This document shows positions 11,905 to 36,344 of a stretch of DNA of 64,000 nucleotides, piece by piece. The stretch is from Bilabrum cf. latius. Taxonomy: Eukaryota. Position 1 is the stretch's first letter. Every line of letters starts with the position of its first letter. A program made the position numbers and the translations under genes. The notes beneath the pieces were generated by a model. That model saw only the letters and a program-made list of their open reading frames with translations. It was not told the origin of the DNA and searched no databases. The DNA is taken from NCBI GenBank assembly GCA_965178125.1, contig OZ237735.1, forward strand, positions 1,364,001-1,428,000, given 5' to 3'.

Positions 11905-12034
11905 GGGAGGCCGGCAAAGACTTCTGTCTGTCCGTTGCAACTTTGCGGAACTTAAAAATTGCGCAGCGCCGCCGGCACTTTGTTGTGTGCGCTTTGTAGC
12001 ACCTGCTGCAGTCCCGTATTTTGTCGGCCCTAGC

Positions 12035-13569: not shown

Positions 13570-15385
13570 TCAGCGCCCTCTTCTCCTTCCACCTCCCATG
13601 CCTCCACCCATGGCTCCAAACAACTCGCGAAGCATCTCCGGACTCATGCCGCCCATCCCGCCCATGCCGCCCATGCCCCCGAACCCGCCGCCACCTCTGC
13701 TGAACCTGTGCCTCCCAGCGTCCTCCGCGTCCACGATATCGTCGTCATCCTCGGGCATGCCAGTCTCCACGTCTAGCCCAGAGTCATGCCTGCGCCGCTT
13801 GGTAGGGTCCTTAAGCACCTCGAATGCGTTGTTGATGTCCTGCATCCTCGTTGCTGCCTTCTTCTTGTCCTCCTCGGAGGCCCCCGCCCACCTGTCCGGG
13901 TGCCAGGTGCGGGCCTGCGCCCTGTACCCCTTGATGATCTGAGCCTTGCTGGCGCCCCTGGGCACGTCGAGGATCTTGTAGAAGTCCTTCTTGGAGGCCT
14001 TCTTCAGCGCGATCCTGGCTTTCTTGAGCTCTGCCTTCATCTTTGCCTTGGTCGCATCGTCCGAGGCCATCTCCTTGGCATAGTGGTAGTCCTGCACGGC
14101 CTGCTCCAGGTCCTCCTTCTCCCCCAGCTTGATCATGCACTCCGCGCGACGGGCGTGGCACTTGAACACCAGTGCCTTGAGGGATTCCTTCTCCTTCTCG
14201 TCCAGGGACAGCACCTGCCCGCAGTCGGCCGCGGCCGCCCTGTAGTCCTTGCCCTTGAGGTGCGCAGCCGCACGGTTGGCCAGCAGCCTCGATCGGTAGG
14301 ACAGCGAGTCTGGCTCCATCTCAATGGCCTCCGTGTAGGCCGCAACAGCCTTGCCGGAGTCCCCTGCCTTGAATGCGGCATTGCCCGCCTCCCGCTTGGT
14401 TTCGAAGGATCGGAGCAGCCTGAGCATGGTCCTCGCCCTGGTGTTGTCGGGGTCGTACCGCATCGCCATGGTGAGGTGGTTGATGGCCTGGCCCATGTTG
14501 CCGTCCTTGTACAGCAGCTTGGCGCGCAGCAGCAGCAGCCGCGGGGAGGTGGACAGGCCCCTGCGACTGAGCAGGTCCCTGCTCTGTGCGAGCGCCTTCT
14601 CCCGGTCTTCCGACTTGCCTGTCGAGCCCATGCATTCCAATTCCAAGAGATCCAGCTGGTCGTTCTTCTTGACTTCTTTCTTGACATCAGCAACGAGTCG
14701 CAGGGCTGTGGCGGCGTCGCCATCCTGCAGCTGCCTACGCGCGGTGTCCCACTTTCTCCGTGTGAGCTCAGCCTTCGATCGATCCGCTCGGACTGTGTCG
14801 TCCATGGGATCTGCAAGCAGCGCCTAGCTGTACATGTCAAGAGATTCACTTATTCTTCCCTGCGCGCACAAAATTGAATCAGAGTAAGAGATTGCAAGGT
14901 GTCACCGCCTATGTTCTTCTGGAGTGTAGTGGGGTGGGAATCGAGCATACACCTGCAAGCCTCCGCAGCTCGGCCTCGGAACCATCCCAGCCACAAAAGT
15001 GTCAAAAATGAATAGCACTACCGGATAGCTAGTCGCTTGTTTGGGGTTGTACCTGGGCCAGTCTCACAATTCGAAGCAAGCTCTTGGCACCTCGCAAGTA
15101 CGCCTTGACGAACTTGGGGTTCAATTCTGAAGCTTTCTTGCAATCCACGATAGCGTTTTCCCAATCAGATACCATCATCCGGGCAGCAGCTCGGTTCGTG
15201 TAACATGCAACCTAGTCGGGGTCTTTCGCGATCGCGGCCGTATAGGCCTTGATCGCTCCGGGGTAGTCCTTGCCCTTGTACAGTCTGTTGCCCTCTGAGC
15301 GGAGCTCCTACGCCTCTTTCTTAATGGCTTCAGCTGACGGCTCTTTGCTGGGCACATCAGCCGACGTGCTCCCGATAGCAGCCAT
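13570..15385 (-). CDS. DNAJC7: DnaJ subfamily C member 7-like co-chaperone (TPR repeats plus C-terminal J domain)
   Basis: TPR motifs (EGNRLYKGKDY..AI..Y..AI, NRAAA). J domain KDFYKILDV...WHPDR with HPD, then a GGM-rich tail. Intron 14860-15067. TAGs at 15308, 15212 and 14824; ends in TGA. Confidence 0.88.
14860..15067 (-). other. Spliceosomal intron in DNAJC7-like gene
   Basis: GTGAGA...GCGCAG on the minus strand, phase 0; joins KSLLRI to GRISESLDMY, completing a TPR. Confidence 0.7.
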
Positions 15386-15481
15386 TTTCGTACAAGAGTG
15401 GCCTGGTTCCATCGGCGAATTGTCCAGTGTAGTTTTGAGCGTCTAGATCCGATTTATTTGAATTGCAATTCACAAAGTACG

Positions 15482-18400
15482 ATGAGTGAAGGCACCAAGG
15501 GGGTCCTTGTGGCATGGACTCGAAAATTTATATCCGAAACCGGTCGGAAACCAACCAAGCACGACGTGGAAGCCGCCGGAATGCTGGAGATGCTAGTTGC
15601 AGTTGGACCGCGAAGTGCGCGGCCATCATCTGCTCCAAAACAGGACGGACGACAGAGTTCACTCGGCCCGGGTTCTTTCATTTCAAGTTAGTAGAAGACT
15701 AAGCAGCTGCGCGGTCGTGGAATCTCTCCGCTCGGTGGCACGCCTGGCAAATCATTGATGCATCGTGGAATCCTTGCCGGTCTCATTCGAAGGTAGCAGG
15801 AGCTCAGAGACAAATCGAACTCAGTATCGGTCTCAAACTAGGGATCAATTTTGGATAATCCCGCCAAGAAGGTCGCGCCTCCCTCGCTTCCGAAGCCATA
15901 GGTGATGCAGGATGCCAAGCTGGACGAACCATATAGTTCAAGCTCAGACGACGAAGCGCAAGCCGAGGCATCTTCGTCACCAGCAGCAAGGGTAGACGAA
16001 AACGACCGCTTCCCAGGCTTGAATCCGGGTTCAGCTCAGGCTACCTTGCAGGAGACCCGGGTTGCCCCTCGCGCCGGGGCCAAGTCGCAGGCTAGGCACA
16101 CAAAGGAGCACTCGAATGAGAACTACGTCAAGCTAGACCTGCGGGGGAAGCGCTGGCGCAGGCATCGATAGAAAGGAGTTATTTCAGCTAGGCGGGGAGG
16201 CTACCGATTCGCCCGATCGAACGGCAGGGGCCCGTGGCTGGGCTCGATCCCCAAGCTGGACGACAGGGCATCGCTGGCTGTGCAGGGGGGCAGCAAGCAG
16301 CTTGGGAATGAAGAGGGGGATGAAGAGGGCGAGGGCGAGGGGGATGCAGACCTGCTGCCAGAGGGATAGGACGGGTCTTCAATCGACATGAACGCCCAGG
16401 CACCTGCATCTACGCAATTTTCTGGTCCTGGGCCGTCCGCAGCCTCCTCCAGTGCTTCCTCGTCTGCGTCGTCTGCTGCAACCAGAGGCCGATCCAGTGC
16501 CGGCGCTCTGCCAGCCGCTCTCAATGACCCGGTGGCCGTGACTCCGGCATCTGAAGGATTCATTGGCGGGAGGAGCCGCGTGGCGTGGGCCCCTGAGCGA
16601 GTGCTGGCGCAGGCCTCGGCGCCCCCTTTCCCGAAGCTCGACATGGTGGATGTTGTGCTGGAGGGTGCCGGGCTGGACACGCCACCTTACCAGATAGACC
16701 GGTCAGTTGGGGGCGACGCACCGTCACTGTCGCAGAGCAGCAGCAGCAGCAGCAGCAGCAAAAGCATGGCTTACGATTCACAGCAGCAGTAGCAACCACG
16801 GACAGGAGCCGGCCAAGCCACGCCCCGTCTTCCCTTGGTGCAGCAGGCGCTGGAGGCCAGCAGAAAGCGGTCTCGGGCCCTTCGAGAGAGGGCCGAGCTC
16901 ATTGCCAGGCGAGGTGCAGCAAGAAAGTCTGCGTCCGCCGGCAGCAGCACGTTAGTACCGATGAGCTCTGGTGACCTGGCGGCGATCCGCAGGATGAGCG
17001 GCGTGAAGGAAGGCCAGGCCATCAGTCGAAGCGAGGACCCGTTTGCGGACGCAGCCATTGCGGCCGGTGGATCCGTCACAGTGAGTAAGGGGAACCAAGC
17101 CAAGGCTGTCCAGAGTGCCCCTCGAATTGCAGGCCTGCCACCCACTGGGCCGAATGGGTGCCCTATCTGCTACGGGCATCACCTGGAGGCAAAGCTTCGC
17201 ACAGTCAGCCGCAAGGGCAGGAACAAGGGTAGGAAATTCTACTGCTGCCCCTTACCCAGGGAAGAACAATGCAAATTCTTCCTTTGGGAAGACGAGCACG
17301 CGTGAGGTACTGCTTGTGGATGCATTGCTTGCCGCCACGCTCGAGACACTCTCTTTGCTCTGCCGCCCCAGTTGGACACACCCACGCGTACTGCCCTTCC
17401 TCTTTGTTTCTTACGCACACCACAGGTAGACAGCCATCCGATTGTATCGCCGTGCCGCTGACATGGCCCTTAAGAAAGACGACAAGAAGGAGGCCTACGA
17501 CTTGTACGTCGAGGTCTCCCGGCGCAAATGGATGACTCGCACGTCGGCGCAGCTTCGGCAGGAGGCAAAGAGGAGGGGTCTGCGAGCTGACCAGCTAGGC
17601 AAGCTCAAGGAGGCCTCGGACCATGACTCGAGCAGCAGCGATGACTCGGAATCCGAAACGGAGGAAAAGGAAGCAGACCTGTCCGCAAAGAAGGACGTCG
17701 TCCGTGCAGCAGCCAGCGCAAGAGCTTCACCACAGAGTGCGCCATCTCCGGCTGGACCACGCGGCAGCTTGAAGGCCTCGGGGCACCCGCAGGGCGAAGA
17801 CCAGGGCTCCAGCTCTGAATCCTCCTCTGCTTCGTCCTCTGGGAGCGACCTATCCAGCTCGGATGAGGAGGCCATCCGCGATCTGCTTCGAGGGAAGAAG
17901 CGAACCGCGGGCAGGACCCGGCTCAGGCGACGTGGGGCTGCTGGTACTAGTTGGGGTGCAAAGCGGCTGAGACAGCGAGTTGTCGGAGCCTCAGGAAGCC
18001 AGAGGGCAAGCAGTCAGAGCATGGATGATGAGTCAACAGACAGCGGCGGCTGGTCCCCCGACGAAGACGTGCCCCTGTCGTCGTTGATTCCAGGGGCAGG
18101 GAGCAAGACCAAGAAGAAATCCAGAGCTCGGCAGTCGGGAGCGACAAAGAAGCGGCGTGGACACGGCTTGAGCACACTTCGGAAGGCCGATCTGGTGCTG
18201 CTGCTGGCTCAGAGCGACGCCAAGTGGTCGGTGCGAGAGCGAGGTATCCTAAAGCAGTAGAACGGCGGCAGGATCGGGGCCCGCAAAGACGACCAACCTG
18301 ATTTCGAAGTGGAGACTGAGCTACCAGCTGCAAAGAAAGCGCGCAAGAGCAGCAACGGCAACGATTCAGGGAAGGCCGGAGAATCGAAGGGTGTTGCAAC

Positions 18401-21400
18401 CGCGGATGACGAGGACGGAGACCACCTGGCCAGCGTGCTTGGCGAGTGGCAGGACGAGCTTGAAGCCAGCGCGCGAGCACCAGAGACGGGAGATGTGGTG
18501 CTCGACACGCTCAGGAGAGAGCTGCGCTACGATGCGTTCCGCGGACAGTAGGAGTGGGTAGTGCGCAGGGTGCTGGCGGGACAGTCCACGCTGATGGTCG
18601 CACCGACGGGCAGCGGAAAGTCCCTGACCTACCAGCTGCCGGCCCTGCTGCTTCGCAGGAACCTGGGCACGAAGACCAAGGGCTCATCCCGAAAGACTCG
18701 CGCCGGCATCACGGTGGTAGTGTCCCCGCTGGTGTCTCTCATGGAGGACCAGATGGCCAAGCTGCCGCCACCGCTGTGCGGCGTGGCCCTGACAGGCAGG
18801 CAGCCAGCCAAGGCGATAGCGGAGACGCTGGCCAGCCTCCGAGACGGTGCGGTGCACGTCATGTTCGTGAGTCCAGAGAGGCTTCTGTCGCCCGCGTTTG
18901 CCAGGCTGATGCGCAGTGGGACAGCCGCACCGCACGTGTCGCTAGTATGCATCGATGAGGCCCACTGCGTGACGGAATGGGGCCACGACTTCAGGCCAGC
19001 GTACCTTAGGCTGCGGTCGGCGTGCACACACATCTTCGGCGATGCGCCCCTGCTCGCCCTCACGGCGACTGCCACGCCGACCGCCGTGTCCGGCGTGCAG
19101 TCCGTCCTCGGCATCCCTGGTGAGGGCGTGTGCCTCTCAGGCTGGCACCGGCCCAACCTGAGGCTGACTGCCTCCAGCGAGGAAGGCGACGCGAGGGCCC
19201 GGGCACTCGTTGACATGATGACGGACCCGGCGTCTCCACTGGGTCCTACGCGTCCGAGGCAGGTGCGCAGCGGCATGCCGAAATAGGCGGATCCAGCCAA
19301 AGGCCCGTGCGTCATCGTGTACACGTCAACGCAAAAAGAGGCAGAGATTGCAGCCGATCTGCTCAAGCAGTCTGGCGTCCCGGCTGCCGCTTACCACGCA
19401 GGCATGTCGGACAAAGCCAGAAATTCCACGCAGCAGCGATTCATGTTCGGCAGCCTGCGCGTGGTGTGCGCGACCGTTGCCTTTGGCATGGGGATTGACA
19501 AGTCGGACGTGCGAGGAGTGGTGCATATTGGAGCGCCCAGGTCGGTGGAAGACTACGTGCAGTAGGTGGGTAGGGCAGGCCGCGACGGGGCACCGTCGTT
19601 CTGCCACGCTTTCATCGGGACAGAGGAGCTGCTCTTGCACAGAGCCAGGACGGCAGGGGCGTCCGGTGGTGGCATCGTGTCGGGGCGGCAAGTGCTGGGT
19701 CTTGTGGCCGCGCTCGCTGGGGCGGCAGAGTACGCTGCGGACGCCGAGGCCAGCTCCGGGCTGTACCAGAGCGACACCGATGATGCTTCGGGTGACGGCG
19801 TTCCAAACCCGACGAGAGGTCGTGACGTGGCAGTGGATGTCTCCTGGTGCGGCGCCGCTCTGGACCTGAGGCCCGAAGCTGTGGACACGGTGCTGGCGTA
19901 CGCAGAGGACGAGGGCGTGGCTGTACATGCGCCATCCAGGCACGGTGTATGCGACGTGGCACTGCGTAGGACTTCTCCCTCCTTCGTCTTCAAGTCATCT
20001 GGAATCTTGAGGTCGGCGGTGTGCGGAAAGCCGCCCCGAGCAAAACAAGGAGCCGCTGCTGGCCGCACTCACGTGCTGATGGCGCGCTGGCAGGCCGCCG
20101 CCCTCCTCGCCCTTGTGCAGCTGGAGTGTATCCCCTACAATCCAGTGTCTGAAGCCTCGCTCACGTTCGGGCCCAGCGACGATGGCAAATCTGGCACGTT
20201 CGGGGCTGCCAGAAGAGCCCCAGCCGCATCCAAAGACGCGGCTGGGCTCGGTGCGGCTACCCAGGAGAACAGGGTGGCACAGGCGCTGCGCACCGAGGCA
20301 ACAGCATTGCTGCTGCAAGATGACGGCAGCGGTTGGACTCCCGAGCAACTGCTATTGCAGGCCATGCAGAGCGTCACGAGTAGGGTGTGGAGAAACGCGA
20401 GCGGCTGCTGGGTGGTGCGGGTGTTTTTGAGTGAGGCGATGGCGCTTGGCGGCATGAGGCTATCCGAGGTGCAGAGGTACTTGCTTCAGCTGCAGTCCAC
20501 GGGACAAGTGGACACCAGCTGGAGCGGATGGAGCATCGGGGTGCTGCTGCAGCACCCGAGCGCGTGGCGCAGCACCATGGAGAAGCGTGATCGCGAGCAG
20601 CAGCTGCCCCAGCACGAGGACCAGATGACTGCGGAGCAGTTCGACCTGCTCTGCCAAGAGACCGGGGAGCACGCCCCTGGGCCAGGAGCCAAGGCAAGCG
20701 CCGGGAGCAGCAAGACGTCTCCGTCGATGCAAGGAGTAATGGCACTTGCGAGGCGCATCTGGGGCAGGATCTCTGTGCTGAGCAACCGACGCGTCAGCAG
20801 GGTGGAGCTGGCCTGGGGTATGCTCCGCAGAGCCACTACAAACAACTGGAAGGAAGCAATGGGGATGACCCGGCCGCGAGCGGTGCCGGCCTCCTCAGCG
20901 TCTGCACCCACTGCCACTGCCACTGCCACAGCTGTTGGTGTTGGCAGCGAGGACGAGAGCATCGAGTGGAGCGATGGCGAGGACGAGGACCTCGGCAGCA
21001 TCATCGGGTCCAGCGACGAAGGTGAGGACGACGACGATGAAGACGAGGAAGCGCCTGAGAAACGCACCAGGAAAGTGCCAAAGACAACCCAGCCAGCCAG
21101 CAGGGAGCTGACCGCGGCAGAGCGACTGAGCGCCGCCCTCGATGCATATTTTGAAGGCAAATTCGACAGGGACGGCGCGAGCGAAGCGGCAAAGCGGCGC
21201 ATGGAGGCTCTCGTGCACGAGGCGCCTCTCAAAAAACTGCCACAGTAGGGAGCCAGGGGGATCAGTGGCAGCAGCGAGGCTACGGCGTTGCGCCGAGACG
21301 CCCTGCAGGTGCTGCAAGAGCTCAGGCAGGCAGCCTCCCACAGGGATTCGGGCATGCGCGCCGCCCTCGAGCAGAGCACCGCTCACAAAGTGCGTGCTGC

Positions 21401-22028
21401 GCAGGTCAAGATGGACACACTGGATGCGGGGATCCGCTTGCCCACACCAGGGAAAGCAGGCGAGGACAGGATGGTGCCCCAAGTGGCGTGCGAGCGGCTC
21501 CTGTCGTCGTTGCAGCTGCCCGTGGGGGCGCCTGCTTGTGGGGCGGTGGCTGATCGCTCCGGCATTGCGGCTGCCACCGCTACAGCCAATGTGGCTGCTG
21601 CAACCGCCACTGCAGTGGCGTCGGGAGAGGCTGCTCCCGGGTCCCTTCTAGCTGCGGGTCTGGCTCGAGCCATTGGGGCGTGGACAGCTGCAGGCCGTGC
21701 CATGCCTCGTCCTCGCGGGATGTCAACGTCTGGGCTGCTCTCGTTCTGCCTCTGCGCCACGGCTTCGCCGCAGGCCGTGGCTCGCGTCATGCAGGGGGTT
21801 CCGTCCGTGTTGTTCCCTGCGAGGGAGTGGGGGGGTCATCTGCACTGGGCCAGGGCGAGAGAGTATCGGTTTGAGGAGGTGGCGGGGCTGGGGGCGGAGG
21901 CAGAGGCCAGGCTGGATGAAGGCAGAGTGATGGATGAGCTAGGGATGCTGGAGGGCAATGAGGGGGGAGAGAGTTAGGGGGGGGAGAGTTCGGGGTCATC
22001 TTCATCGGCAGCGGGGTCTTCCTCTTGA
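15482..22028 (+). CDS. RECQL4: RecQ4-type DNA helicase (Sld2-like N-terminus, GRF zinc finger, RecQ helicase core)
   Basis: N-terminal W..KF...GRKPTK.DV and NENYVKLDLR. GRF finger CYGH...VSRKGRNKGRKFYCC....QCKFFLWED. Helicase motifs FRGQ*E, APTGSGKSLTYQLP, IDEAHCVTEWGHDFRPAY, TATA, ATVAFGMGIDK, YVQ*VGRAGRDG. About 15 in-frame TAGs; intron 17302-17425; ends in TGA at 22026-22028. Confidence 0.9.
16736..16759 (+). repeat. (AGC)n trinucleotide microsatellite encoding poly-Ser within RECQL4
   Basis: About 8 tandem AGC units, seen directly. Confidence 0.8.
17302..17425 (+). other. Spliceosomal intron in RECQL4
   Basis: GTGAGG...pyrimidine tract...CCACAG, phase 2; removes an in-frame TGA and shifts into the helicase frame. 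Confidence 0.75.
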
Positions 22029-22217: not shown

Positions 22218-23252
22218 TCACGCCTGCATGAGCCCCATGTCCTGGAGGCGCTTCTTGAGGACGGCCTTGTCAGCCGCCGGCATGGCCACAGAGGGCAGCC
22301 TGGGGGGGCCCAGCTCGATCCCGGAGATGAGGGTGCCGATCTCCTTGCCCACGTCATAGTTGCCCCACTCGGGGTTCTGCAGGAGCTCGGCAACCAGTCG
22401 CCCGCAGAGCGCCTGGATGTCCCGTGCCTTGTCCAGGTCGCCCTTGTTGAAGGCATCGATGAGGTCGTTCATCTGCCTGCCGATGTAGTTGTAGGTGCTC
22501 CCCACGGCGCCCTTGATGCCCATGGCCAGGGCTCCGAGGAGGGCCTCGTCCCTGCCGAACACGAGGTCGTACTTGCCTCCCACAGCAAGGTGCGAGAGCT
22601 GCAGCTGGTTCAGGTTGTAGTCGGTGAACTTGATGCCCGCAAGGTTCTTGACCACGGGGCCGTCCTTGCCGGCCTCGTTGGCCGCGATCAGGTCGGTCAT
22701 CTTAAAGCCCGACTTGGTGGGACCTGCCAGCGACATTTGTGGGATGTGATAGTACCAACTGGGCAGTTGGACCGCGTCCATGACGTACTTGAGCTCGGCC
22801 AGCAGCTGGTCCACGGTCTGCGGACGGAAGTAAGAGCCTGGCATCTGCACAATGCCGGTAGCGCCGATCCGCTCGGCGTGCTCGGCCAAGGCACGCGCGC
22901 TCTGGAGAGCATCTGTGCCGACGTGGATGTATATCTTGAGGCCAAGTCCGGGGCCGTGCTTCATCCACTCCTCAGCAAGCAGCTGGCGCTCCTCCTGCGT
23001 CAATTTGACGCTTTCGCCTGTAGTCCCTGCCACGAGCACGTGCTTGACTCCCGTGTCTGCCAGCCACTTTGCCTGGGCCGCAACCGCGTCATAGTTGACT
23101 CGGCCAGGGTCTGTTGCGTTGAAGGCGGTGTATGCAGCCGCCATGAGACCTTCCATTCTTACAAATTGGAGGGAATCTGCCTGTGCTGCGGCCTGATTAG
23201 CGCACACGGCCGCCGTAAGGGCGCATATTGCTGAAATTACTGCAGCTCGCAT
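22218..23252 (-). CDS. N-acetylneuraminate lyase / DHDPS-family aldolase with a predicted signal peptide
   Basis: Motifs GTTGES, YYHIP, GIKFTD (Schiff-base Lys), FGRDE, GAVGSTYN. Hydrophobic N-terminus MRAAVISAICALTAAVCANQAAA. No internal TAG; ends in TGA. Confidence 0.85.
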   Translation of the reverse strand: MRAAVISAICALTAAVCANQAAAQADSLQFVRMEGLMAAAYTAFNATDPGRVNYDAVAAQAKWLADTGVKHVLVAGTTGESVKLTQEERQLLAEEWMKHGPGLGLKIYIHVGTDALQSARALAEHAERIGATGIVQMPGSYFRPQTVDQLLAELKYVMDAVQLPSWYYHIPQMSLAGPTKSGFKMTDLIAANEAGKDGPVVKNLAGIKFTDYNLNQLQLSHLAVGGKYDLVFGRDEALLGALAMGIKGAVGSTYNYIGRQMNDLIDAFNKGDLDKARDIQALCGRLVAELLQNPEWGNYDVGKEIGTLISGIELGPPRLPSVAMPAADKAVLKKRLQDMGLMQA

Positions 23253-23450
23253 TGCTTTGTCAAACTTCTTAAGTTTCGAACCTGCCTGTGGCATCGGACT
23301 CCGACACGGATCCTCGTCGATATCCAATAATCAGATTAGTCGCAGAAGTACACGTAATGTTTAGCGACATGCCATAGGTGAAGATGAAGAGAGTCGCCAA
23401 ACTCCGATGAAAGTATTGTTTACTCAAGTGGCATTCATTGCTTTTGCGAC

Positions 23451-26400
23451 ATGGCGACTGTACAGACAGCGCTACTGTCAGAAGCGCTATTGCACCATTC
23501 CAAGTGCCGGCTAGATCTGAAGAGTTCACTTGAATTGCGCGATGAGCGCTCCACGACCGCGTGGTCGGTACTTCAGAAAGCCATGACGAGCCGTGATCCC
23601 ACCGCAGGAGTTGCATGGATTAAACGACTTCGCGACAGTCTCGGCATGAATCAAGGTGAACTTGCTTGTGGATATTTTGCGGTATTGCCTGCTATCATTC
23701 TAAGGTTCATGTGCCGTTTTGATTGTCTCCAACAGTATCATCCGTCGCAGAAATTGACCGAAGTTGGTGTTGTGGAGCGTGTGGAAGAACATGCGGGCTA
23801 CGAATAACTGGTCTTGTGCTGCTGATCATCGCTGCATTTGTTGTGAACCGAGATCAGACTCCTCTGGTGATCTTCACGACAGACCATGCATCCGCGGTTG
23901 GTAGAGCCCCGGAAGACGCCCCCACTTGGGACCTTAGGAGAAGGTGGATAGATTTTACCGGTTCAGCGTTTGTGCTTGTATTGTGCTTATTTCTGGCTGT
24001 TCAAACGGCTTCGCTGGAGACTTCATGGGGAGTCTCACGAGGACTATCCCGAGACAGGTGCCACCGCTTAGGTTGTTGCGCTGCTTGTTCGGGTACAGAG
24101 GGGTCTACACCAATGTTCACGTGCTGTCAAACTAAAGCAAGCAGCAGCTTGCTTAGCATTGGCTGCCTGCCGCAACAATTGGGCGGCCCTTTCGTGTTAG
24201 TGGTCTGCCTGGGCTTCGGCATAGGGGTCGACCTCGTCAACGGATTCCCCGGCGCGGGGGTATACATTGTTGGGGTCTTAGGACCCGCCGTAGCCGTTGC
24301 GGCCACAGCAAGCAATCCACTCTCAGTGATTCTGACGTACGCAACATGCCTGGGCGCCTACATCGGGTGGGTCGTGCTGGACACCTGGCTCGTTGGCCTA
24401 TGGCCCCGCGTGCTGTCCCCCAGTGGGGGCAATCTCCCAGGGATCTTGCTCGCGCTGGTGGGGACTGCCGTCCCTGTGCTCGTGCTACCCGCGGTCATGT
24501 CGTACGCCGCGGCTTTGTCCACGCGGAACTCCCGCAAGCAGCTGCAGAGCGCACTGAAAGTTAGCCAGGCTGCGGGCCGCAGCTACACGGCCGTGGTGCA
24601 GCTGCTCCGATCGTTGATGCCACCCTTCGCGATGCAGTGCCTCACGAACGGCGTGCCCGCGTTTGAAACCGAGGCCTGCATCGTGGTGGTGCACATCGCA
24701 GTGCTGCCACGGTCCCTCCTCGCGCTGCAGAAGGTGGCTCACCGGGTCCAGACCGTGATGGGCACTACAATGATGGGATCTAGAGGTATCGCTGCCGAGG
24801 CTGCATCCTCAGTGGGCGGTGGGGCTCCCAGTGCAGAGAGGTCGGAGCGAAGCTTTGCTCCCACCATGGAAGGGAGTGACACATCGGGGGGCACCAGGTC
24901 AAGCGGAGGCGTTGGCAAAGGCGCTGCATCTTCGTCCCAGAGCAGGAAGGGCGAGAGACGGCACTGGAATTCGCGACAGGGCAGCAGCAGCTGGGGAATA
25001 GGGAGCTAGGGTGGTCCCAGTCTGGCAAGCAATGCAAGGGGGGGTACCAGTGACGGCAGCAGCGCCTCTGATGCCGGCTTACGTATCCGACGAGGTCGGT
25101 CGAGGCCATCCACGTCCTCTTCGATGGGCGTGGATGTGGCAGGCGGAGGGTTCAACCAAGAAGAGGGCGAAGCACTAGGTGACCATGATGTTGCGATTGA
25201 TGTTGATGGTGTTCGGAATGCTGAACCCGCAACCGGCGCCGCGAAGGCGAGCTTGCCTGGCGATCTCTTGCGACATTGGGAAGACAGTCAAGAGGCAGCA
25301 GATGCGCTAGCTAGAGCGATCTCGGCAGTAGATGGCATCGTCATGCCTAGGAACGGCGTGACCAAAGTGTCATGCGTCGGCAGCAATTGGACCGCAGCTG
25401 TGGGTATGGTGACTCCCACTGGTGCGATCGATTCAGTGCGGGCGAGCCAGCTTCGAATTCCAGCAAAGCGCAGGTCAAAACAGGCTTCAACCCGCTGGAG
25501 GAACGAGGGTTGGCGAGCCGAGAGAGATGCAGCTGGGGACGCGGAAGAACGACGCAAGGCATCAAATGGGCGAAGCAAGACCAGGGAGAGAACCGGCGAT
25601 AGCGGTGCCAGTCGTTAGGCCAGCCTGCGCAACGCCGCGATTGATAGAGAGGCAAGTAAGCCCTAGACCAGCTAGGTCCGTGCCCTAGCTCATGATGGCG
25701 CAGACGACCGGAATTCTGCACGGCATAGAGGGGCACCGGGAGTCTCTTCTGAGACTCGCGGGAGTAGCCCCGGTGGCCCTCAGCGTGGCAGCGATCACGG
25801 AGGTGCAGCTTTTCGGCTGGAGATGCCCGCGCAAACGGTGGCTCTTGCGATAGAAATGGGCGCAGGACTACAGACAGCAATCGCTAGCTTGGATGCTTGC
25901 GGGTACTTTGGGCGTGATGCAAGGGTAGAGGTGGGCGTGGGCATATCGGCCGGGTCAGCCTCAGTGGTTGGATTCCTGGGCTAGGACGTATCAGCGCACG
26001 CGTGGTCCGTGCTTGGAGATGCTCACGGAGAGGCCCGGCTGCTAGCGGAATAGATCCCCTACAGAGTACGCATTGCCAGCAGTGCCATCCGAATGCTCAA
26101 GGACCCGCTGCAGTGGAGGCAGAAAATCGTGCAGGAGCATCTGCGGCCTCGTGCCGATGCCCCCAGCGATGCTTCCCTCGGTTTCCTGCAAGCCGGCGTC
26201 CATTAGCAGGATCTAGCTCAGTTGAAGGCGTAGAGGAAAAAGTCCTCCGCGGGGGATCCGTCAGACAGCTCGGTTGCAACGGGTGCTGCCACCGCGTCGG
26301 CGACACCAAGCGCCTCATCGCGCATGGCACAGCGAGTAGCAGCGGCTCACAACAATAAGCCATCGCCAGATCTTGCGGCGTCGTTCACCCAGCAGGCGCA

Positions 26401-29400
26401 AGCGAGGAAAGAGGCTGAGATGGACCGTGCGGTAGCCATTGGCCTTCACAAGGCCAGCAAGGAGCTCGACGAGCTGAGCACGAGGAGACCTATGCCAACT
26501 CTAGGGAAAGCCACCGTTGCAGTTGCATCCGAATGGTAGCTGATCTTGCCGCCAGCAGCCCCAGTGGTGTTTCGTGCCAGTACCGCTGCCGGCTCAAAGG
26601 ATGTTTCGCGGGCAGCCAAGACTGGTACTCGGCTCACGACTGATCTCATGCTTTGCATGCCAACTCAAAAGCACAAGCCGCAGTCGACGAGTCAAACTGC
26701 CGATAGCAACCCAGTGGCCCTGCGGTACTCCACAGAAACGGCAGAAGACTCTGCATCAGATGGCGGCTTGTCCCCAAGAATTGCGGTGGGCACTTTGACG
26801 TCCCCTCGGACCAGTCACGCCCAACTGCCTGACGTCCAGCTGAGCGGAACACCCGAACAATCTGTGACAAGCGCAGCTAAAGTGCGTCCTGATCCGCTTG
26901 CGCGCGTATGTGATGTTATCTAGACATTTAGAGTGACGGCCACGAAAACAAGGAAGCGCCCGGCCTCTGGAAGAACCAGCGCGCACAGCGGAGGTAGACT
27001 TTTTTCCGCTGAATCCCAGGAAGGCAAGTCGGCGAGCAGGCAGGCCAAGCACGAAGGATCCGCGGTGGGTCAGCCAGAACCGGGCCTGACATCATCGTCT
27101 GGACTGCTGAGTAGCATGGTGGACGATGCAATTCGGCTTGCTGCAGTTCACTCCGAGTCGATCCAAGTTGGGCCAGACGGGCACTTATCAATCGATAGAA
27201 ATGATGAAGCTGCCGGATCCGCGACGTCCAATGCAAACCATGATGACGGAGAGATCGAAAGGGCGTCATCCAGCAGCGAGTCGGTGATTTCTATCACGAA
27301 AACACCAGCTGAGTCAGGAGTGCCTCCCGGCATGAGTCGCTCCGATATGCCGGCTGGTGCAGCCACCACAATGGATCGTGCGTGGGATGGGAGCGACAGT
27401 TCGGCTGGTAGGCTGGCCAAAGTTCTACATGTGTCGTCTGGGGTATCAGACAGCGTCTTGCTGTTATTTTAGCAGCACGTAGACGCTCAAGCGTATCCTT
27501 TGGTGGCGAAATAGGCAGCTGCAAGCCCATCAGTAGCTCCACCCACTCCGGTCAGTGCTGCAATCGACTCAGCGCATTCCGCTGGTTTCCCTGCCGAAAC
27601 CCCTCTACCGGGGATTCATAGACGGCCCAGCCATGCTCTCCCCGGGCGAGCACGTGGCGTTGGCTCGGTCTTGCCAACTTCAATGAGTCGCCATGGGAGC
27701 CACGCAAGCATGAACCCGAGAAGCGCAACGCACGGACCTAGAATCGCTGGAGCTGCGCACCCAGAGATGGTTGCTCAGATTTCTGCAGAGGGCCAGGCAC
27801 AGCTAGGCAACTTATCTGCTAGTAGTAGTACACCAGCGGCTGTCGAGCAGTCAGGCTTAGCCTCATGTTGCAGACCCTCGGGTATTCCTAAATTGCGCGC
27901 AAACCCAACCTTCTTGCATCTGGTCGTAGGAACTCCATGGTTACTTCTAGTTCTAATCATCATCGTGGTTGTGGAGTCGCTTTTGTCGTTTTGGAGGCGG
28001 TACGAATTTGCTCTTGCGGCTGGAGCCGATTCAATCTAGGCTGTTGAAGACACGCTCCAACCACTCATAGTCACCCTGATTGCATCGGGAACTTCGTTCG
28101 TTGGACTTGCTATCGTCTTCATACTGCCGCAGCTGAGCGTCTGGCTTGGCTGTTCCAGCCGTGCCGAGTACGTGCTTGACCTGTGCTGCGATTGCGATCA
28201 CTCTGACCGCTCGCATCATGGCTGGTTTACCCGACTCTTCGACATGTACGGGTTTTGCAACGGTGGTCGCGGCACCTGGCATTCATGGACTGTACTCTGG
28301 GCCAATGTGCTCGTGATTACTGCAATCCTCCTGACAAATGTGCTTTCTTTTGAGCTGAAGCTGCGAGACGATACCACTGGCTGTCTTTCAGTCCTTCTGC
28401 TCGATGGCATGTCCATCGTATGGATGTGCATATACTATCTTGAGCTGGTCATTGTGTGTTCTCCGGCACTGTGGGGCCACCAATTCGCTTCGCCGCCGGT
28501 GATTGCTGTTGCAGTTGCTATTTGCCACGGGTTCGCAATCATCAATGTACTTCTTAGGACTGACGTTGACCGTGCCGATGATTCGCGCCAGTGCCTCGAG
28601 ACAGCCTTTGCACCCTCCACAGGACGGACGCTGCGAGGACCACTGGCATTTCAGGCACTTCGTGTTGGTCTTCTTCCAGCCATTGCAGCCGTGTGGAGGT
28701 TTGCCACGTGGAGCGAGGTGCAGGGTATTGAAGAGAAGGCACTTCCGGCTCTGGAGCGGCTGCGTGAAGCAATTCTTGAAAAAGCGGGCACAGTGCAGGC
28801 AGCAGTTGACATGATGCTTCCAAGGCGATTGCTGGATCACTGGAATACGCAGCTTTAGACAATATCAGATGGGCTTGGCGGTTCCAAAAGCATACTTCGC
28901 TCACCATCCCAGCTGCTTCTGCTACCACGTAGGCACACCTAGGACAGGCTAGGGATATCTGTTGAGACTCCCACTATCGCCGTTCTGGCCGTGCATCTGA
29001 ATCATGTGAAGGACCTATTATCCCTCATCGGCCCTGTTGCATTGTTTCGCATCACTCGGGAGGTGTGTGCCGCCGTAGAGGGAGCGTGCATCAGGCGTAA
29101 AGGCCGTCGAGTTCGAGTGTCGCAGGAGGGCGTGCTAACTGCTTTCGGGCTTGACAATTGGACAGATCACCATGCTGATCACGATGTCTCCATGCAGCGG
29201 GCTTCAACCCGGAAAAGCTCGAACGGAGTTGAGGAAGCAATCGGGGACCCCAGGAGCAGGGCTTCCTCCGGAGCAGCCCGCCTGAGGGCAAATGACCCTC
29301 AGCTACTGGCTACGCGAGCGCTGTTATCCGCATCGGATGTATCTGCGGCACTCTTTCTCCTATCTCGTCGCCTCAAGGTTGAACTGTCTGTGTCATGCTC

Positions 29401-32400
29401 GCTGCATATTGGTCCGACGTAGCTAGTAGCGGCAGGCGGACATTAGGCCTGGGACCTGCACGGCAGCACCGTGGACGACTCGCTGGCAATTGCAGCGAGG
29501 GCTGCAATCGAGGTGCCTCGGCGTTCGGGCTCTGTCATCGTGTGCTCCAGCAGGGCGATGATGTCGCTCACTTCGGCCGAGCCTTCGTTCGAGGCAGTCT
29601 TTGCAGAACGGCTACCATCGTAGCCGGAGGGTCTCTCGAGCCGGGTACTGGCCGGAGTCTCCACTGCAAGCCAGGTACGCTTGACGTCTGGAGCGGGTTT
29701 TGCGCTGAGCACGGCAGCGCAGGGTGACGAGGCACGCACTCGGACCGGTTAGAGCCGGTCAGCGGAGGGAAGCGCTGGTACCCGCAACAACGCTGCTGAT
29801 TTTGATTCCGGGCGTTTTCTGCCGAAACGACAAACTCGCCGAACGGATGCTGCTGCTGCTTTGCATTGGTTTGGGTGGACCACGCACGCCCACGAGCAGC
29901 TGCTTCGGATCAGTTTACGGGTGTCTGGCATGCAAAATTCGGTGCATGGCAGCCTGCATCCCTCAGGAGGTGCACCACACGAAGATGCCACATCTAGGAA
30001 CAACAATCGAAGCAGAGGCAGGCATAGGATCCATTAGGACACCCTGACTGCCTTGTTGCAACTAGTCGGCGAATCCACATGTACCCGAATCGAATCTTGC
30101 GCAGATCGTCTTTCAAGGCAGCACCCCGACTCGAGCTCAGTGGGAGAACGGCTCGTTTAGACCCTTGCCTTAGTATTACAGGCTGTGCATTCGACTGAAG
30201 GAACCACGATGATATGTGTGCACGACGTGGATACAGAGGCCACCAGCTTATTCGTGAGTGACGAGTGCTGGTACTTGGCTCGATGCTCGCCCGAAGCGCT
30301 TGAAGGCAAGAGCGCATACAAGCTTTTGTTCAAAGACGACCTGGCGCGTGTGTCCGAGGCGCATGACGTCAACCTTGAATCAGATGAGGTCATAACTGCT
30401 GATGTACAGTACCGCGTTTTGGTGGGCTACACAACGCTTAGCGCGGTAGCCGCATGTGCTGGTGTCTCACTTGGTCATATCGCTGAGGACATTAGCAGGG
30501 AGTCTTCGGATGGAACAGCAGAGTCAAGCAATGCAGGCGGGACAAGTAGTCAGGCATATTCTGCCGATAATGGTACCAGGTCAGGTCTGCGCGCACGCAA
30601 TACCCAGCCTTTTCGCGAGATGCAAACGGCGAAGATCCCGTGGCACGGTCGAGATACAGCGATCCTCGGCACTGTGTGTCGCAGCGCCAGCCAGGCTTTG
30701 CCTGGCGAGTTGGTCAGACCACTTGCAGAGATCAAGTAGCTGCTGCAGGAATAGGAGACTAGTCAGGAGCACCTGCAATTTGAGCGAATGAAGGATCTGC
30801 CCGTGCCCGTTTGCCGATGGGTGTCAGCTCGCACCCTTCGTGATCGGGGTGGCAAGTTCCTCATTAGCATCTGGCGGCCGATGTTGGAGGACCAAGAAGA
30901 AATACAAGAGAGTCTTGGAGTACCTGCCTGGGACTACGTTACGATTCCGCAAAGTGAAACCATGCAGCCGTTGCCCGATGGCAAGAGTGCTGGCACCGAT
31001 GAGGTGCCGCCTGGGGGTGCTGGATCACCTAGTGCCATCGACCCGCTTAGCTGGAATCGCAAGGTGTCTGAGCTTCGAGAGAAGGCTCAAAGACTCTAGG
31101 CCAAGCCGTAGGTAGTTGCCCCCGCTACTCCACTGATTGCTGGCGGTGATGAGAATGACGACGCAATGCAAGTCTAGCAAGCCAAGGCTGATCTTCTCAG
31201 CATTCCCATATCCTTCGCTGAATTCAAGCTGCTGCGTCTGCTAGGAAAGGGGGCATTCGGCACTGTGTACCAGGCGTGCCACCTGCCCTCTGGCACCAGC
31301 ATGGCACTCAAGATCCTGAGGGCGAAGCGAGTGAGGAGGAGGCACCTGCGGGCAGAGCTCAACGTGCTCTCCCAGCTACCCGTCCACCCTTGCTTGCCTC
31401 GATTCTTCTGCTGTATCTCTAGCCAGAAACGTATTTTCATCGCTACTGAATACATCGATGGGCCAACTTTGAGCGACGTGGTGTAGAATCGTGGGCGCAT
31501 GTCAGAGGACGCGTTGAGGGTTCTCATTGCGTAGCTGGTTTGCGCGCTTCAGGAGCTGCACAGCAACGGCATTGTGCACAGAGACATTAAACCAGGTAAT
31601 GTGATGATCAGAGCATCCAACGGTCAGCCTGTACTCATTGATTTTGGATTATCCGAGGTCATGTATGGCGTGTCAGTTCCTGCGACAATGGGGTCCGACT
31701 TGGGACGGGACGAGGCTCGCCTGTCTAAACCATAGCCTGGTGCCTTAAGCGTTGCGGCTACATCATCTCTGGCAAAACAGGCGGCTTCAACGTCTGCTGT
31801 GTCGGTAAAGCCAAACTCGTCAGTGCGTTTTCTCCGGGAGTACAGGCATGAGCTTGAATCTGCCGGGCTCGTGCCGCTCCTGAAGCAGCTCTCGCCCTCC
31901 ATGAGCCTGCAGGCGTCATCTGCTCGAACCAGCATTTTCTCGATGGGACCTCTGGTCTTCGATGGCAGTGGAAATCCAAAGGAGGCGTGGAATGCGTTTC
32001 GAGACGTGGTGGCTGCAAGAGCTGGACATCGGGCCGCGGGACGGTTCGGACCGATGTGGGCGAAAGGGCAGAGCGCAGTCCAGCCGAGGGTCGCGTCGGT
32101 TCTTGTGTTTGATTCCAGGGATGACGAGTTTCTGGCGCAAGCCCGCATGAAAGCGCTGCAGATGCAGGCAAGGCGCACAGCGTTCCTTCGAGAAACCCGG
32201 AAGGGCGCCGCAGACCCTCTTGCCGAACCAGAGCCACCCGCTTCGCCGAGCGACGGATACCACTCGCTTGTAACCAGAATGAGGCTGCAAGGGTCTCTAT
32301 CCGAGTGCCCAGGGCCTGATGATATGCCCACACCCGAGCCAATCGGCGGAACAGTCGATGCAGCAAAGAAGCTGAAGCATGCGATCTACCAATGGAGGTC

Positions 32401-35400
32401 CTTATTCTGGTTTCTTGATCACGCTACAAATATTGTGCCCTCGATGGTGCAGGGCTCGATCGACTTTCACAGTGCCATCAAAGGAGAGGGCTGGCTCTTC
32501 GATTCGATCATTGTCACGGATGTCGACAGCCCAGAAGTCGCAGAGGCTTTGTGTGCAGAGCTCATGCCGATGTTGGCAGATTGGGAGCGTGTCATGGAGG
32601 GCCACGTCAGACGAGCTGCAAAGCAGGCAAGCCGGAACGCAGCAAAACTGCGCAGCCGTAGCAGAACCAACTTGGTGCAGCCTCATGTCGACCTGACCGC
32701 TGGTAGGAATAGCTTGCCAAGTCAGATACAGTCTCAGATTTCGGCTAGGTCATCATGGTACTCTGCGCAGAAGTGCATTGCGAAAGTGGTTCTTGTGACG
32801 CCAGCAGGCGTATCCCCGGCCACGAGACATAGGATCTTTGCGGCCGCTGCCAAGTATAGCAGTTCGGTGGAAGTTTTACCAGAGGTTGCACCCGTGATGG
32901 GTTTCATGGAGCTGGTGGACAAGCCCGCCACCGAGAGAGCTGCTGCACTGCACATGCACGACGTGCAGCTAGACCCAGCTCTCATTCGATTCCGAACAAT
33001 GAGCAGGTAGACGTCAAAGATCGCCGGCTCTGCCCCTGAGGCTATGTCCAGCGGAGCTCTGCGCAACTCAACTGCACGGGAGGTCGCTGAATCTAGTGCA
33101 TCAATACGATTGCAAGTAGCAACAGAGCTTGGCCTGTAGCCGATGCCTGTGATCTATGCTGACATTCTAAAGCGTTTAGGCAAGGGGACGGGCAGTCGGG
33201 GGACAGGTGGTGTCATTACGAGCGAGGTTCTTCGGAAGCAGCTGATGACAGGGCAAGTGCCTATGGCGTCGATGCACGTGTTCGATGACCACTAGAACAG
33301 CGTTCCACCAGCAGCAAGAGCCGGCAAGGGGACCGGCGCGGCCATTCTGAAGCACATGCAGTCGCTGCTACCTGTTGAGGAGGACTTACGTGATGAGGGT
33401 GGAGAGCATGACAAAATGGGCCTTGTGGTTCGGACAGCACAGCGTGCCCCCGGGCCTGCACGTGCGTCCAGCGCGAGGGCAACTGGCAGCCACGGCGAGG
33501 TATTCGACGATAATGCTCAGGGGACGGAAGAAGAGGATGATGATCGAATGCAGTCATACGAACAATTGCAAGGGATGGAGAGGGGCGTGACGTTCGAGGT
33601 GGTTGATTTTGACCTTGCCAAAGCCAGAGAAATGCCCCGCGCAGAGTCGACAACCCCCGAGGAGAGGATGGCGCAGATGCTGGTCAAGAAATCTAGCGGT
33701 AAATTTCGTGCAAAACGCAAGCAAAAGTTAGCTAGATCATCTCGGAGATAGCGTGCGGCTGCCCCTGGCCTGTCAGGGTTTCAGAGTGAGGTGGCTGGGG
33801 ATAGCCTCGGTGCTGGTGAGCTTGGGATGTCGTCCACTCAGCAGAGGAGTGACCCAAGTGTTGCTTCCAGCGCTAGCTAGCAACGGGCGCCGCTGCAACA
33901 GGACCGCAAGAAGCGCAAGGTAGACCACGCTTCTAGGTTGTTCTTCCACGCATCCGTGTATCGGCTGGAGCGCCCATTCATCAACCAGGTGGCTGGCACG
34001 CCAGCTTACCTTGCACCCGAAGTGATGCTGCGAAAGGCATCGTTCGATTCGGACCTCTGGTCGCTCGGCGTCCTTGCGTTCCGCTGTTTGGCGGGGCGCA
34101 TTCCTTTTGCGGGGGAATCCAGGGAGGAGGTCACAGCTGCCATTCTTCGAGGCGACATCAGGTGGGAGCGCTTGCCCCGGAGCACCAAGCCAGAGACGCT
34201 CGATTTCTTGCGGGGGCTACTGCAGGTCGTGCCACAAGAGAGGACAGGCTCCGTGCAAAGAGGTGGTGTGGAGACGCTGAGGGCGCACCCTTTCTTGTGT
34301 GGGAGAGTGAAGTGGGAGACTCTGTTCAACGGCAGCGCACCACTGAGTCGAATGGCAAAGCACCTCACGCAAAAGAAGCCTACAACCTTCGACTCGCACG
34401 AGACCGCCAAGATTCAGATCAATTTCGCGGGGAAAAGCGTCCCTGCCATGACGGACGATGTGGTTCGCGCCAACGTGCAAAGGTCGTAGATCCAGTTAAA
34501 TGACAGCATCGAAAGGATGAGGCCGATCGTCATCCAACGGATCGTGGCAAAGCTCCCCCAAGAGCAATCGGGATCCCAATCGTCCAGGACAGGCGCGACG
34601 AGCAGCTCTGACATCGCGGGCCAGAGCAGCTTGGGTGGCTCCAACCGGCTCAAGTCATCCAAACGCGACCTCGCGAGCGACTTGTCGGAGTCTGGCAGCC
34701 CAGATCTCAGCATGCCCGAGCCTGCGAAGGGCATCAGAGGAGGAGATCATGCGCCGGCGTCCGGGGCAGGGGCAGATGAAACAGTCCACTAGAAGCATGC
34801 ATCGAAGAGAAAGGCGCAGAAGGAGCCTCGCATGCAGAGGGGCAACACCCATGGCCAGTCCATGCCTCTTGCAATGTCAGCCTCCATCAGCCGCCGCAGG
34901 GAGGCAGAGGCTACTGATGAGGAAGTATCTGGGCGGGCGGGCGATGGAGCATCCGGTGCCGCCCAGGAGAAGCCTCCTAGGCCCAACGAGATGCATTCCG
35001 TGCGGTTGCTGGGCCGCATGTCTTCGATGCGATCTCGGTCCAGGCGGGACGGACACGCCTCAATGCTCGCTTCTGGGTCGGTGGAGCACAGGGGTGGCTC
35101 CATGGTGAGGGACGAATTGGATGAGACCTTGGACGAGGCGAGGGAGGGCGCGAGCAAGCAGGGGCGCCGGAGGGAGGAGGGCAGCAAGGCCGGGATGGGC
35201 AGGGATTCGGGCACTAAGCTAGGGGGTGGCGGAACCGGCGCCGCCGCGCACTGGCAGACGCACGGCAGGCGCAACGTGGCGAGCAAGCTCAAGTCCCGCG
35301 AGTTCCAGGAGCAGCTCGAGTTCATGTCGGGGGCCTCCTAGCAGGACATTGGCAGGATGCAGCAGGCTGTAAGCGCTGACCCCAGGTTTAGGGCGAGGGA

Positions 35401-35809
35401 AGCCCACGAGGCGCGCAGGAAGGAGATGGCCAAGCTAGCGAGGAGCGGGTTCGACATGGATGCGATCAAGGAGGGCTTCGGGAGAGTCGGCGGCGGGGCT
35501 GGTGCGGCTGCTAGTCCGGACAGCGGGCGGCTCGACAGCGGGAATCGCTGGGGAGGGAGCGCGGGGAGGAGGCGCTCCTCTGAGATGAACAACGCAAGCC
35601 TCGTCGTAGACGCGGAAGAAGGCATCAGTGTGCAGTTTGAAGGGGGTTTGCTAGGTCTTGGCGGCGGAACAGGCAGGGGTGGCGGCGGATCTCAGGCCGC
35701 TGAGCAGCGCGACCGCGAAGGTCGCAGCCCGAGGGAGGCTGGTTCGAGCTTTGCTCTGGGCGGTGAGTCTGACGACGACTACGAGGATGGAGAGTCCGAG
35801 GGTTTGTGA
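23451..35809 (+). CDS. Giant (~4090 aa) signalling protein: TM cluster, degenerate class III cyclase, TM cluster, degenerate cyclase, PAS, AGC-like Ser/Thr kinase with a very large activation-segment insert
   Basis: Exon 23451-23655, intron 23656-23735, then a 12,074-nt frame with about 37 TAGs and no TAA/TGA until TGA at 35807. Cyclase-like: [59 protein letters not shown]...[30 protein letters not shown]. Kinase: [24 protein letters not shown]...[20 protein letters not shown]...VKW. Confidence 0.8.
23656..23735 (+). other. Spliceosomal intron
   Basis: GTGAAC...CAACAG, phase 1; links ORF 23451 to the long downstream frame. Confidence 0.6.
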
Positions 35810-36344
35810 ATCATGTGGTTGTTAGTTGCGCATGTTTCACAGCTGAACGACTGCGCGCCGAAAATATGATTTGCCTCTGGATTCAAACGTTACTATGGAA
35901 TTGTACAGTGCTGATATGTATAACTGAGCGGCCGGAATCCAATTTTCAACTCCCACGAGCGCGAATACCGTTTCGCACAGTACAGCAATTGCTATAGAAT
36001 ATATATAACAAGTATGGTAAGGCAGCACCGCAGATATATGCAGCTTCATCTATATTTGGGGCGGCTGTTGTACATGCAATAATTGAAATTTGGATTGCCG
36101 TTCGACAGCGAGATCTACCGCGCCTTATCTCTTTATCTCGCTTTTGGGTGCTGAATATTCGTGACAGAAGGGCGTCAAAAGTTGTCACAAGAGTATTTTA
36201 GCTTTTTGTTCTTCGAGCATGCAATGGCTAGCGGGCCTTGGTGGAGGACCTGGTACAGCCGGGCACTTGCCGGTCTGGTGGGACAAGTTTGGCTGCATGG
36301 CGCACACTTCCACGGAAATTCATGCATTACTTACCTATTCGCAG

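Follow-up and report, generated by a model that had tools for sequence, protein, structure and literature searches.

The window analysed here, a 64,000-nucleotide stretch of contig OZ237735.1, carries on its plus strand a gene whose product of about 4090 residues is broken up by the standard genetic code and becomes one chain when TAG is read as glutamine. Its predicted modules run M1-C1-M2-C2-PAS-kinase: two membrane domains, each followed by a cyclase-like domain that appears catalytically dead, then a PAS domain and a kinase split by a large insert in its activation segment. Related genes recur throughout the genome, and we lean, with slightly better than even confidence, towards reading them as a lineage-specific family of multi-pass membrane kinases in which the dead cyclase would relay a signal to the tethered kinase.

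A long gene visible when TAG is read as glutamine

Between positions 23723 and 35809 (plus strand), TAG as sense leaves 4028 codons open in one frame, 37 of them TAG, with no TAA and no internal TGA; each of the five alternative frames across this interval holds 54-113 TAA and TGA codons. The standard code splits the frame into 38 pieces, 18 of which reach at least 100 aa, in keeping with a preliminary description of this DNA that had spoken of a hidden gene in about 20 small open reading frames and had proposed retranslation with TAG as glutamine. The same description began the protein at 23451. The ATG there is indeed the start of a protein of about 4090 aa, but it lies outside the long frame and needs an intron of 80 nt: a 68-codon exon 1, joined to the long frame by removal of a predicted GTGAAC..CAACAG intron (23656-23735), gives a spliced product of 4092 aa. 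A paralog on contig C27 (686349-698264; 3971 codons, 36 TAG) shows the same arrangement: its first exon is homologous, and the phase-1 intron behind it, of 103 nt, matches in position and phase; the 23656-23735 intron is absent among the RNA joints listed. The features of the gene, in window coordinates, are as follows.

23451..23655, + strand: exon 1, 68 codons plus 1 nt, starting with ATG, no transmembrane segment; predicted from the homologous C27 exon
23656..23735, + strand: predicted intron, 80 nt, phase 1, GT..AG; equivalent to the C27 intron
23736..35809, + strand: exon 2, a continuous frame in which 37 codons are TAG (Gln), ending in TGA; matched by RNA contigs
23789..24499, + strand: membrane domain M1, six hydrophobic segments (Kyte-Doolittle); 41% identity to the C27 paralog
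24518..26140, + strand: helical linker and putative pseudo-cyclase C1, three conserved blocks with two low-complexity inserts between them (hhalign)
27917..28711, + strand: membrane domain M2, five clear hydrophobic segments and one weaker (1.47; cut-off 1.5)
28760..29617, + strand: helical linker and putative pseudo-cyclase C2 (AF2 model, Foldseek, VIA, family hhalign)
30170..30880, + strand: PAS, N-terminal half 30170-30472, probable last strands at about 30800-30880 beyond an insert
31202..31660, + strand: kinase subdomains I-VII, including the G-loop and Lys (Pfam PF00069, E 3.2e-46); 90% identity to the C27 paralog
31661..33949, + strand: activation-segment insert, 782 aa from DFG to GTP, with a conserved alpha/beta domain at about 31820-32992
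33950..34417, + strand: kinase subdomains VIII-XI and start of an AGC-like tail; AGC kinases are the top PDB matches (E 6e-15)
34418..35806, + strand: C-terminal tail, low complexity with conserved patches; 47% identity to the C27 paralog, no Pfam match

In locally conserved pair alignments of the window gene with C27 and two metagenome contigs, TAG faced glutamine at 12 and another TAG at 4 of 23 conserved sites. This share (16/23) is comparable to that of CAG and CAA, which faced glutamine or TAG at 62 of 88. Across 58 long frames from genomic DNA we counted 581 internal TAG codons; these frames ended in TGA (50) or TAA (8), some ends perhaps being intron-side stops. Other genes of the window also require TAG as sense, TAA as sense extends no frame, and several database fragments end exactly where the window gene has glutamine (for example P0008, P0030, P0041 and P0042). 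Prp8, with four TAGs, was uninformative on the code, and when TAG was set against the column majorities of distant paralogs, glutamine was the majority at only 2 of 21 sites, a noisy measure whose spread was the same for glutamine codons. A search for a tRNA with a CUA anticodon, by one narrow pattern that missed the ordinary glutamine tRNA too, gave three sites, none of them a tRNA. Taken together, TAG appears to behave as glutamine, as had been proposed, with TAA and TGA remaining stops, in a GC-rich genome.

The same variant, UAG as glutamine with UAA kept as a stop, is reported for Iotanema and three ciliates, Protocruzia tuzeti, Hartmannula and Trochilia, in the part of PMC11687900 covered here. 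This genome differs from theirs in being GC-rich and probably that of a stramenopile, and no stramenopile is listed with the code in that part of PMC11687900. We found no description of it in stramenopiles in open-access literature, supplements lying outside the search, and this probable stramenopile may have reassigned the codon independently of the lineages above. On the lineage itself, C16:31003-39279 encodes a P4-ATPase-guanylyl cyclase fusion with two cyclase domains. Such fusions are reported only from alveolates, oomycetes and bicosoecids in the sections of PMC13466520 covered, which suggests a SAR lineage for this genome, probably a bicosoecid. The assembly also holds a second 18S gene (C95:6099-7900), about 78-83% identical to the 1700-nt main ribosomal DNA array on C12, possibly from a contaminant eukaryote.

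Runs X1-X3 were treated as RNA; no run is on record as RNA, and these three behave as such because the neighbouring RuvB-like gene is spliced in them, while X4 is flat. The X1 contigs listed match 26044-29477, 29553-31282, 31276-34069 and 34042-35887 with no differences and no gaps, so in the covered parts the TAGs are unedited and exon 2 has no intron. Depth climbs smoothly from about 6 to 26 toward the 3' end of the gene. The window gene and C27 share just three stretches of 31 nt or longer, and these are the places of three of the four breaks among the contigs listed (26044, 31276 and 34042). In the kinase region 37 of 37 listed alternative letters match the C27 base, so the C27 paralog is expressed too. 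The whole gene is likely carried on one transcript.

A family of at least 24 loci

Searching the 48.6-Mb eukaryotic assembly with C2 gave 14 matches at 12 loci, all with M1-C1-M2-C2 and a split kinase, so that an apparently dead cyclase (see below) is fused to a kinase at every one of them. Eleven of these 12 members are uninterrupted frames of 3415-5288 codons, and the twelfth runs across a 139-nt intron. A kinase search gave 33 matches, and the 15 further loci examined comprised 12 more family members and three soluble kinases. In the 12 further members the C1a, C1c and C2a blocks and both kinase halves occur in order; the M1 profile is found in 11 and the second half of C2 in only one. There are thus at least 24 family loci in three subfamilies, 22 of the 24 with their modules in one frame, one with an intron and one broken. 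The broken member (C5:1440001-1450000) is interrupted between C1 and C2, as a pseudogene or through an assembly error.

Beyond this genome, reading through TAG in the two metagenome contigs gives one frame with C1-M2-C2 or M2-C2 in series, and none of 20 protein clusters consulted put a name to a family fragment; the close homologs found are unnamed, TAG-broken metagenome fragments only. A full-length search of proteins of 2215-7049 aa gave five matches among 1798 candidates, MAST4 at the top and none with the layout, and a word search for the C2 pair in proteins of 505-2000 aa, a weak search, gave none among 8000 candidates. The preliminary description had named no characterised protein with this architecture, and our database searches returned none either; an M1-C1-M2-C2-kinase architecture is likewise not described in the open-access literature searched, supplements excluded. 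Its picture of a one-chain protein agrees with the single frame, although the 24-member family and the kinase insert had escaped it.

Two cyclase-like domains with incomplete active sites

A Kyte-Doolittle scan (cut-off 1.5), the sole source of our transmembrane segments, places six in M1 and five clear plus one weak in M2; across the 12 members from the C2 search the numbers are 3-8 and 4-7. Neither the cyclase-like domains nor the PAS domain are detected directly by Pfam, NCBIfam or PDB sequence searches, one sequence search reaching E 0.15 to Cya2. PF00211 has no match in the window gene at E<=0.1, and the locus is not among its 26 matches in the genome; one homolog fragment gave E 0.006, below the cut-off.

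Profile comparisons reached further. One profile, built from 14 cyclase domains encoded in this genome, where inserts inside cyclase domains are a habit, recovers C1 in order across its inserts. In hhalign, C1 of the window gene and C27 pair aligns with the active cyclases of the genome at probability 89, and the 12-member family at 96.3 (E 1.6e-9, score 63); C2 of the same family reaches 95.9 (score 60). The C1 scores of 44-63 compare with shuffle maxima of 17-22, the 12-member C1 and C2 shuffles peaking at 17. An AF2 model of C2 (pLDDT 68.8) matches Rv1625c in Foldseek (E 1.8e-7) and, in VIA, the mammalian adenylyl cyclase 1cs4_A with Z 19.5 and a root-mean-square deviation of 2.7 over 173 aa, against at most Z 13.3 for GGDEF. 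C2 is predicted from this model to have a class III cyclase fold, and the profiles suggest the same of C1. Both folds had been proposed earlier, as had the module order, and the transmembrane clusters, cyclase folds, PAS and kinase sit at the places then given.

In the other twin cyclases of this genome the metal-binding Asp pair (DxxGFT/IGD) lies in C2 and the Asn and Arg of NxASRM in C1, and for that reason both pseudo-symmetric orientations were checked. The residues at the catalytic positions of the window gene (spliced numbering) are H388, S614, S618, S826, G833 and L837 in C1 and H1822, R1862, E1866, D1975, D1982 and A1986 in C2. None of the 12 members is canonical at C1 Asp1, C1 Asp2, C1 Asn, C1 Arg or C2 Asp1. 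C2 Asp2 is Glu in two, the window gene included, while C2 Asn is kept in one member and C2 Arg in a different one, so that no member has both. The combination of two metal Asp on one domain with Asn and Arg on the other is incomplete in either orientation in all 12, and as read from these alignments neither cyclase active site appears complete. The loss of catalytic residues noted in the preliminary description extends to all 12 members, but the missing Asp pair of C1, which it had counted, is normal for the active twin cyclases of this genome.

Sequence divergence points to constraint on these domains. Identity between the window gene and C27 is 82-96% in the C1 blocks, 71% in C2, 90% and 79% in the kinase halves, and 26-35% in linkers and inserts. 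The C1c block is 96% identical, with nonsynonymous divergence (dN) of 0.028 and synonymous divergence (dS) of 0.94, and dN in the kinase N-lobe (0.080) is higher than in C1c. Against one metagenome contig (L025), C1c retains 82% and C2 65% identity with synonymous sites saturated. The cyclase domains thus seem to be catalytically dead yet under strong conservation.

A split kinase with a large activation-segment insert

The kinase is the only Pfam match within the gene, and AGC kinases are the top PDB matches for both of its halves. It had been drawn as one domain at 31210-34330; the kinase is there, as two halves flanking the 782-aa insert, and its catalytic motifs are intact as described. 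Seven positions (Lys, Glu, the HRD Asp, Lys, Asn, the DFG Asp and the subdomain IX Asp) show no variation among the 12 members, and the APE Glu is present in 11. From DFG to the P+1 loop there are 782 aa here; across the first 12 members this interval ranges over 624-1437 aa, and in another 11 over 372-648 aa. By alignment, the activation-loop Thr site is Ser or Thr in one of 12 members, and no clear FxxF[S/T] hydrophobic motif was seen in the aligned tail of the 12.

Within the insert, the alpha/beta domain is conserved in two subfamilies, with 54% identity to C27 compared with 33% for the low-complexity part. Its model has a pLDDT of 37.5, and the best fold match (Z 5.9) is a generic alpha/beta protein. 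In the ESM Atlas, an insert fragment from the database falls near unnamed bacterial clusters (0.90-0.92) and near Mrr-type restriction endonuclease clusters (0.88-0.89; 14-22% of members), both leads only. A receiver (REC) domain was also considered: the strand and helix order looks compatible by eye, but the hhalign score against 31 REC domains (12.9) equals the shuffle mean (12.9). Receiver-domain matches on contigs C42, C12, C19 and C29 number at least 50, many of them near-duplicates clustered locally. Unrelated soluble kinases of this genome also carry long inserts, and the length of an insert by itself is thus a habit of this genome.

In kinase trees with a long stem and few references the family forms one clade (100/100), and, with the same limits, it falls on the AGC side of an unstarred 94/91 branch; the second tree omitted 11 rows of the first. 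A separate clade of soluble AGC-like kinases on C5, C37, C29 and C9 (L087, L111-L113), in tandem on C9, has DFG-APE inserts of about 700-1000 aa. The best named eukaryotic matches to the family are MAST4 and a fungal kinase that is tentatively Rim15-like. MAST, Greatwall and Rim15 share with the family a DFG-APE insert and the absence of a T-loop Thr; a PAS domain occurs in Rim15 as well, and the insert of Greatwall is long. Membership in MAST/Greatwall finds no support in the tree: a branch of MAST, the Rim15-like kinase and L087 (97/94; long branch, only three reference rows) excludes the family, which forms its own long-branch clade and is membrane-embedded. Pfam matches neither DUF1908 nor PDZ in the window gene, both features of MAST kinases according to the part of PMC10419289 covered.

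A PAS domain confined to one subfamily

Searching 1.84 billion proteins with a C2-PAS profile gave 22 matches: 16 unnamed fragments, with no Pfam family above cut-off in the 13 scanned, and six Pfam-PAS proteins that match the PAS part (E 1.7e-5 to 5.6e-4). The N-terminal 73 columns reach an hhalign probability of 98 against PAS_3/PAS, a partly circular comparison, and the C-terminal strands were placed by eye after the insert (hhalign 0.43). The range given earlier, about 30206-30370, covers the N-terminal half only, although its PAS similarity is borne out; calling the domain dead does not apply, PAS being non-catalytic. Of the 12 members 3 have it: the window gene and C27 clearly, and C15 as judged by eye. 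PAS thus appears to be an accessory of one subfamily, outside the family core.

Proposed mechanism and alternatives

In the mechanism we favour, a single polypeptide of about 4090 aa would be made by reading UAG as glutamine. M1 and M2, the helical linkers and the C1-C2 pseudo-heterodimer would still relay a cue from the membrane or from outside the cell to its interior, as they do in a membrane cyclase, and the output would be a conformational change switching the tethered kinase, in place of a cyclic nucleotide. Because the activation-loop Thr is mostly lacking and a large insert occupies that region, the likeliest switch would be release of an inhibitory contact, probably involving the insert. 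PAS may add a second input in the subfamily of the window gene. Retention of the module order in 24 loci and the two metagenome contigs supports this relay. Several observations weigh against it. About 57% of the chain belongs to no conserved block, and the long low-complexity linkers between modules could decouple them; the conserved insert domain was undetected in the 12 further members; and a 71-nt stretch of C1c is letter for letter the same in C27, which may mean that gene conversion has raised the identity of this block to some extent. An Asp or Glu stands one residue after the C1 Asp2 position in 8 of 12 members, which together with the Glu at C2 Asp2 of the window gene leaves room for odd residual chemistry, and a 75-nt RNA hole (29478-29552) is unexplained by the C27 paralog.

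The low-complexity linkers would suit an anchor or scaffold, in which the dead cyclase half positions the kinase or docks partners such as active cyclases without controlling activity; about ten cyclase genes with canonical motifs in the genome could supply such partners. An anchor alone would have no need for a pair of cyclase cores under conservation as tight as that of the kinase, or for being kept in 24 loci, and we think it unlikely. Somewhat less probable again is a specific form of the relay itself, a nucleotide sensor: ATP, a cyclic nucleotide or some other purine would sit in the C1-C2 cleft without being turned over, and its binding would regulate the kinase. Of the 12 members, 9 keep the base-specifying Asp in C2 and another has Glu there, Arg occupies the C2 Lys/Glu position in five, and the fold matches of C2 include 6yii (Z 15.4), a solved structure titled "class III adenylyl cyclase-like ATP-binding protein"; set against this, the metal Asps and the phosphate-binding Arg are lost, and the members on C4 and C25 lack the base-specifying Asp.

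An atypical active cyclase, working through shifted acidic residues or a partner chain and feeding its own kinase, could draw on the displaced C1 acidic residue, the Glu at C2 Asp2, the single retained C2 Asn and the intact fold. We regard it as very improbable: the first metal Asp is missing from both domains in 12 of 12 members, Asn and Arg never occur together, and Pfam shows no cyclic-nucleotide-binding domain in the window gene. We hold it just as improbable that UAG partly terminates, or that the mRNA or chain is split, leaving cyclase-like and kinase parts as separate products. The RNA cover does consist of contigs with a hole, and the narrow pattern did find no tRNA(CUA), but TAG faces glutamine or TAG about as often as CAG and CAA do and is abundant inside long frames; the depth gradient is smooth, the hole lies within the C2 fold and contains no stop codon, and nearly all loci keep their modules in one frame.

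Neighbouring genes

A DHDPS-family gene at 22218-23330 (minus strand) is divergent from the kinase gene, about 200 bp from its ATG, and has far higher RNA depth. Downstream, about 100 nt past the end of the RNA contig, 36015-36344 is a spliced 5' segment upstream of a RuvB-like 2 gene. Elsewhere in the window, a 2745-codon frame (3913-12150, minus strand) has a MYCBP-associated domain and a degenerate phosphoglycerate-kinase-like C-terminal part by Pfam; a GRF zinc-finger frame overlaps a RecQ-like helicase frame at 15338-22028 (plus strand), probably as one intron-joined gene, tentatively RecQ4-like; and 53250-63998 (minus strand) encodes a 3582-codon WD40 protein with an upstream P-loop motif, tentatively TEP1/NACHT-WD-like.

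Comparison with known systems and significance

Membrane class IIIa cyclases (mammalian ADCY1-9 and the cyclase module of the alveolate, oomycete and bicosoecid P4-ATPase-guanylyl cyclases) have in common with the family the 6TM-C1-6TM-C2 order (TM, transmembrane), helical linkers and the class III fold, and are described as 12-helix pseudo-heterodimers in the sections of PMC13466520 covered. The family differs from them in lacking an intact catalytic site, which places it outside the active class IIIa enzymes, and a P4-ATPase, and in having a C-terminal kinase and large low-complexity inserts. A bacterial TOMM kinase/cyclase fusion (TIGR03903) joins a Ser/Thr kinase and a class III cyclase on one chain, but the model matches our kinase part only, at 74 bits against a cut-off of 706. 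Kinase-cyclase fusions also occur in giant viruses, amoebae and green algae; they carry a single cyclase domain and are not known to have a 12-TM twin layout. A reading of Toxoplasma UGO as a dead twin cyclase was dropped as unsupported in the parts of PMC9600588 and PMC10275601 covered.

The nearest contrast in logic is with receptor guanylyl cyclases, where the kinase-homology domain is a dead regulator of an active cyclase; here a seemingly dead cyclase accompanies a kinase, and the logic is inverted. Those receptors (GC-A, GUCY2) also carry kinase and cyclase domains on one membrane protein (PMC10463195, in the part covered), but are single-pass with the kinase before the cyclase, whereas this family is multi-pass with the cyclase first. 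The cross-kingdom survey in PMC10463195 describes protist Ser/Thr/Tyr transmembrane kinases as mainly single-pass. All component folds are known and domain fusion is common in protists; still, there is a real chance of a new receptor class. Its full form, a class of multi-pass receptor Ser/Thr kinases in which catalysis was lost, the 12-helix domain and C1-C2 pair of the cyclase were rewired for direct signalling to a fused kinase whose activation loop is replaced by a regulatory domain, and the whole expanded to at least two dozen receptors, is a tentative proposal that we rate at somewhat below an even chance.

A whole signalling family would thus have been hidden from protein databases by standard-code reading, its close homologs surviving there as fragments. 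Membrane cyclases pose the open question of whether their 12-helix anchor is a ligand sensor. A family in which anchor, linkers and C1/C2 cores are constrained while catalysis has been dropped would offer a kinase read-out and 24 natural variants for addressing it. If the receptor-class proposal is true, the family would be direct evolutionary evidence for the cyclase membrane anchor as a sensor and would invert the design of receptor guanylyl cyclases.

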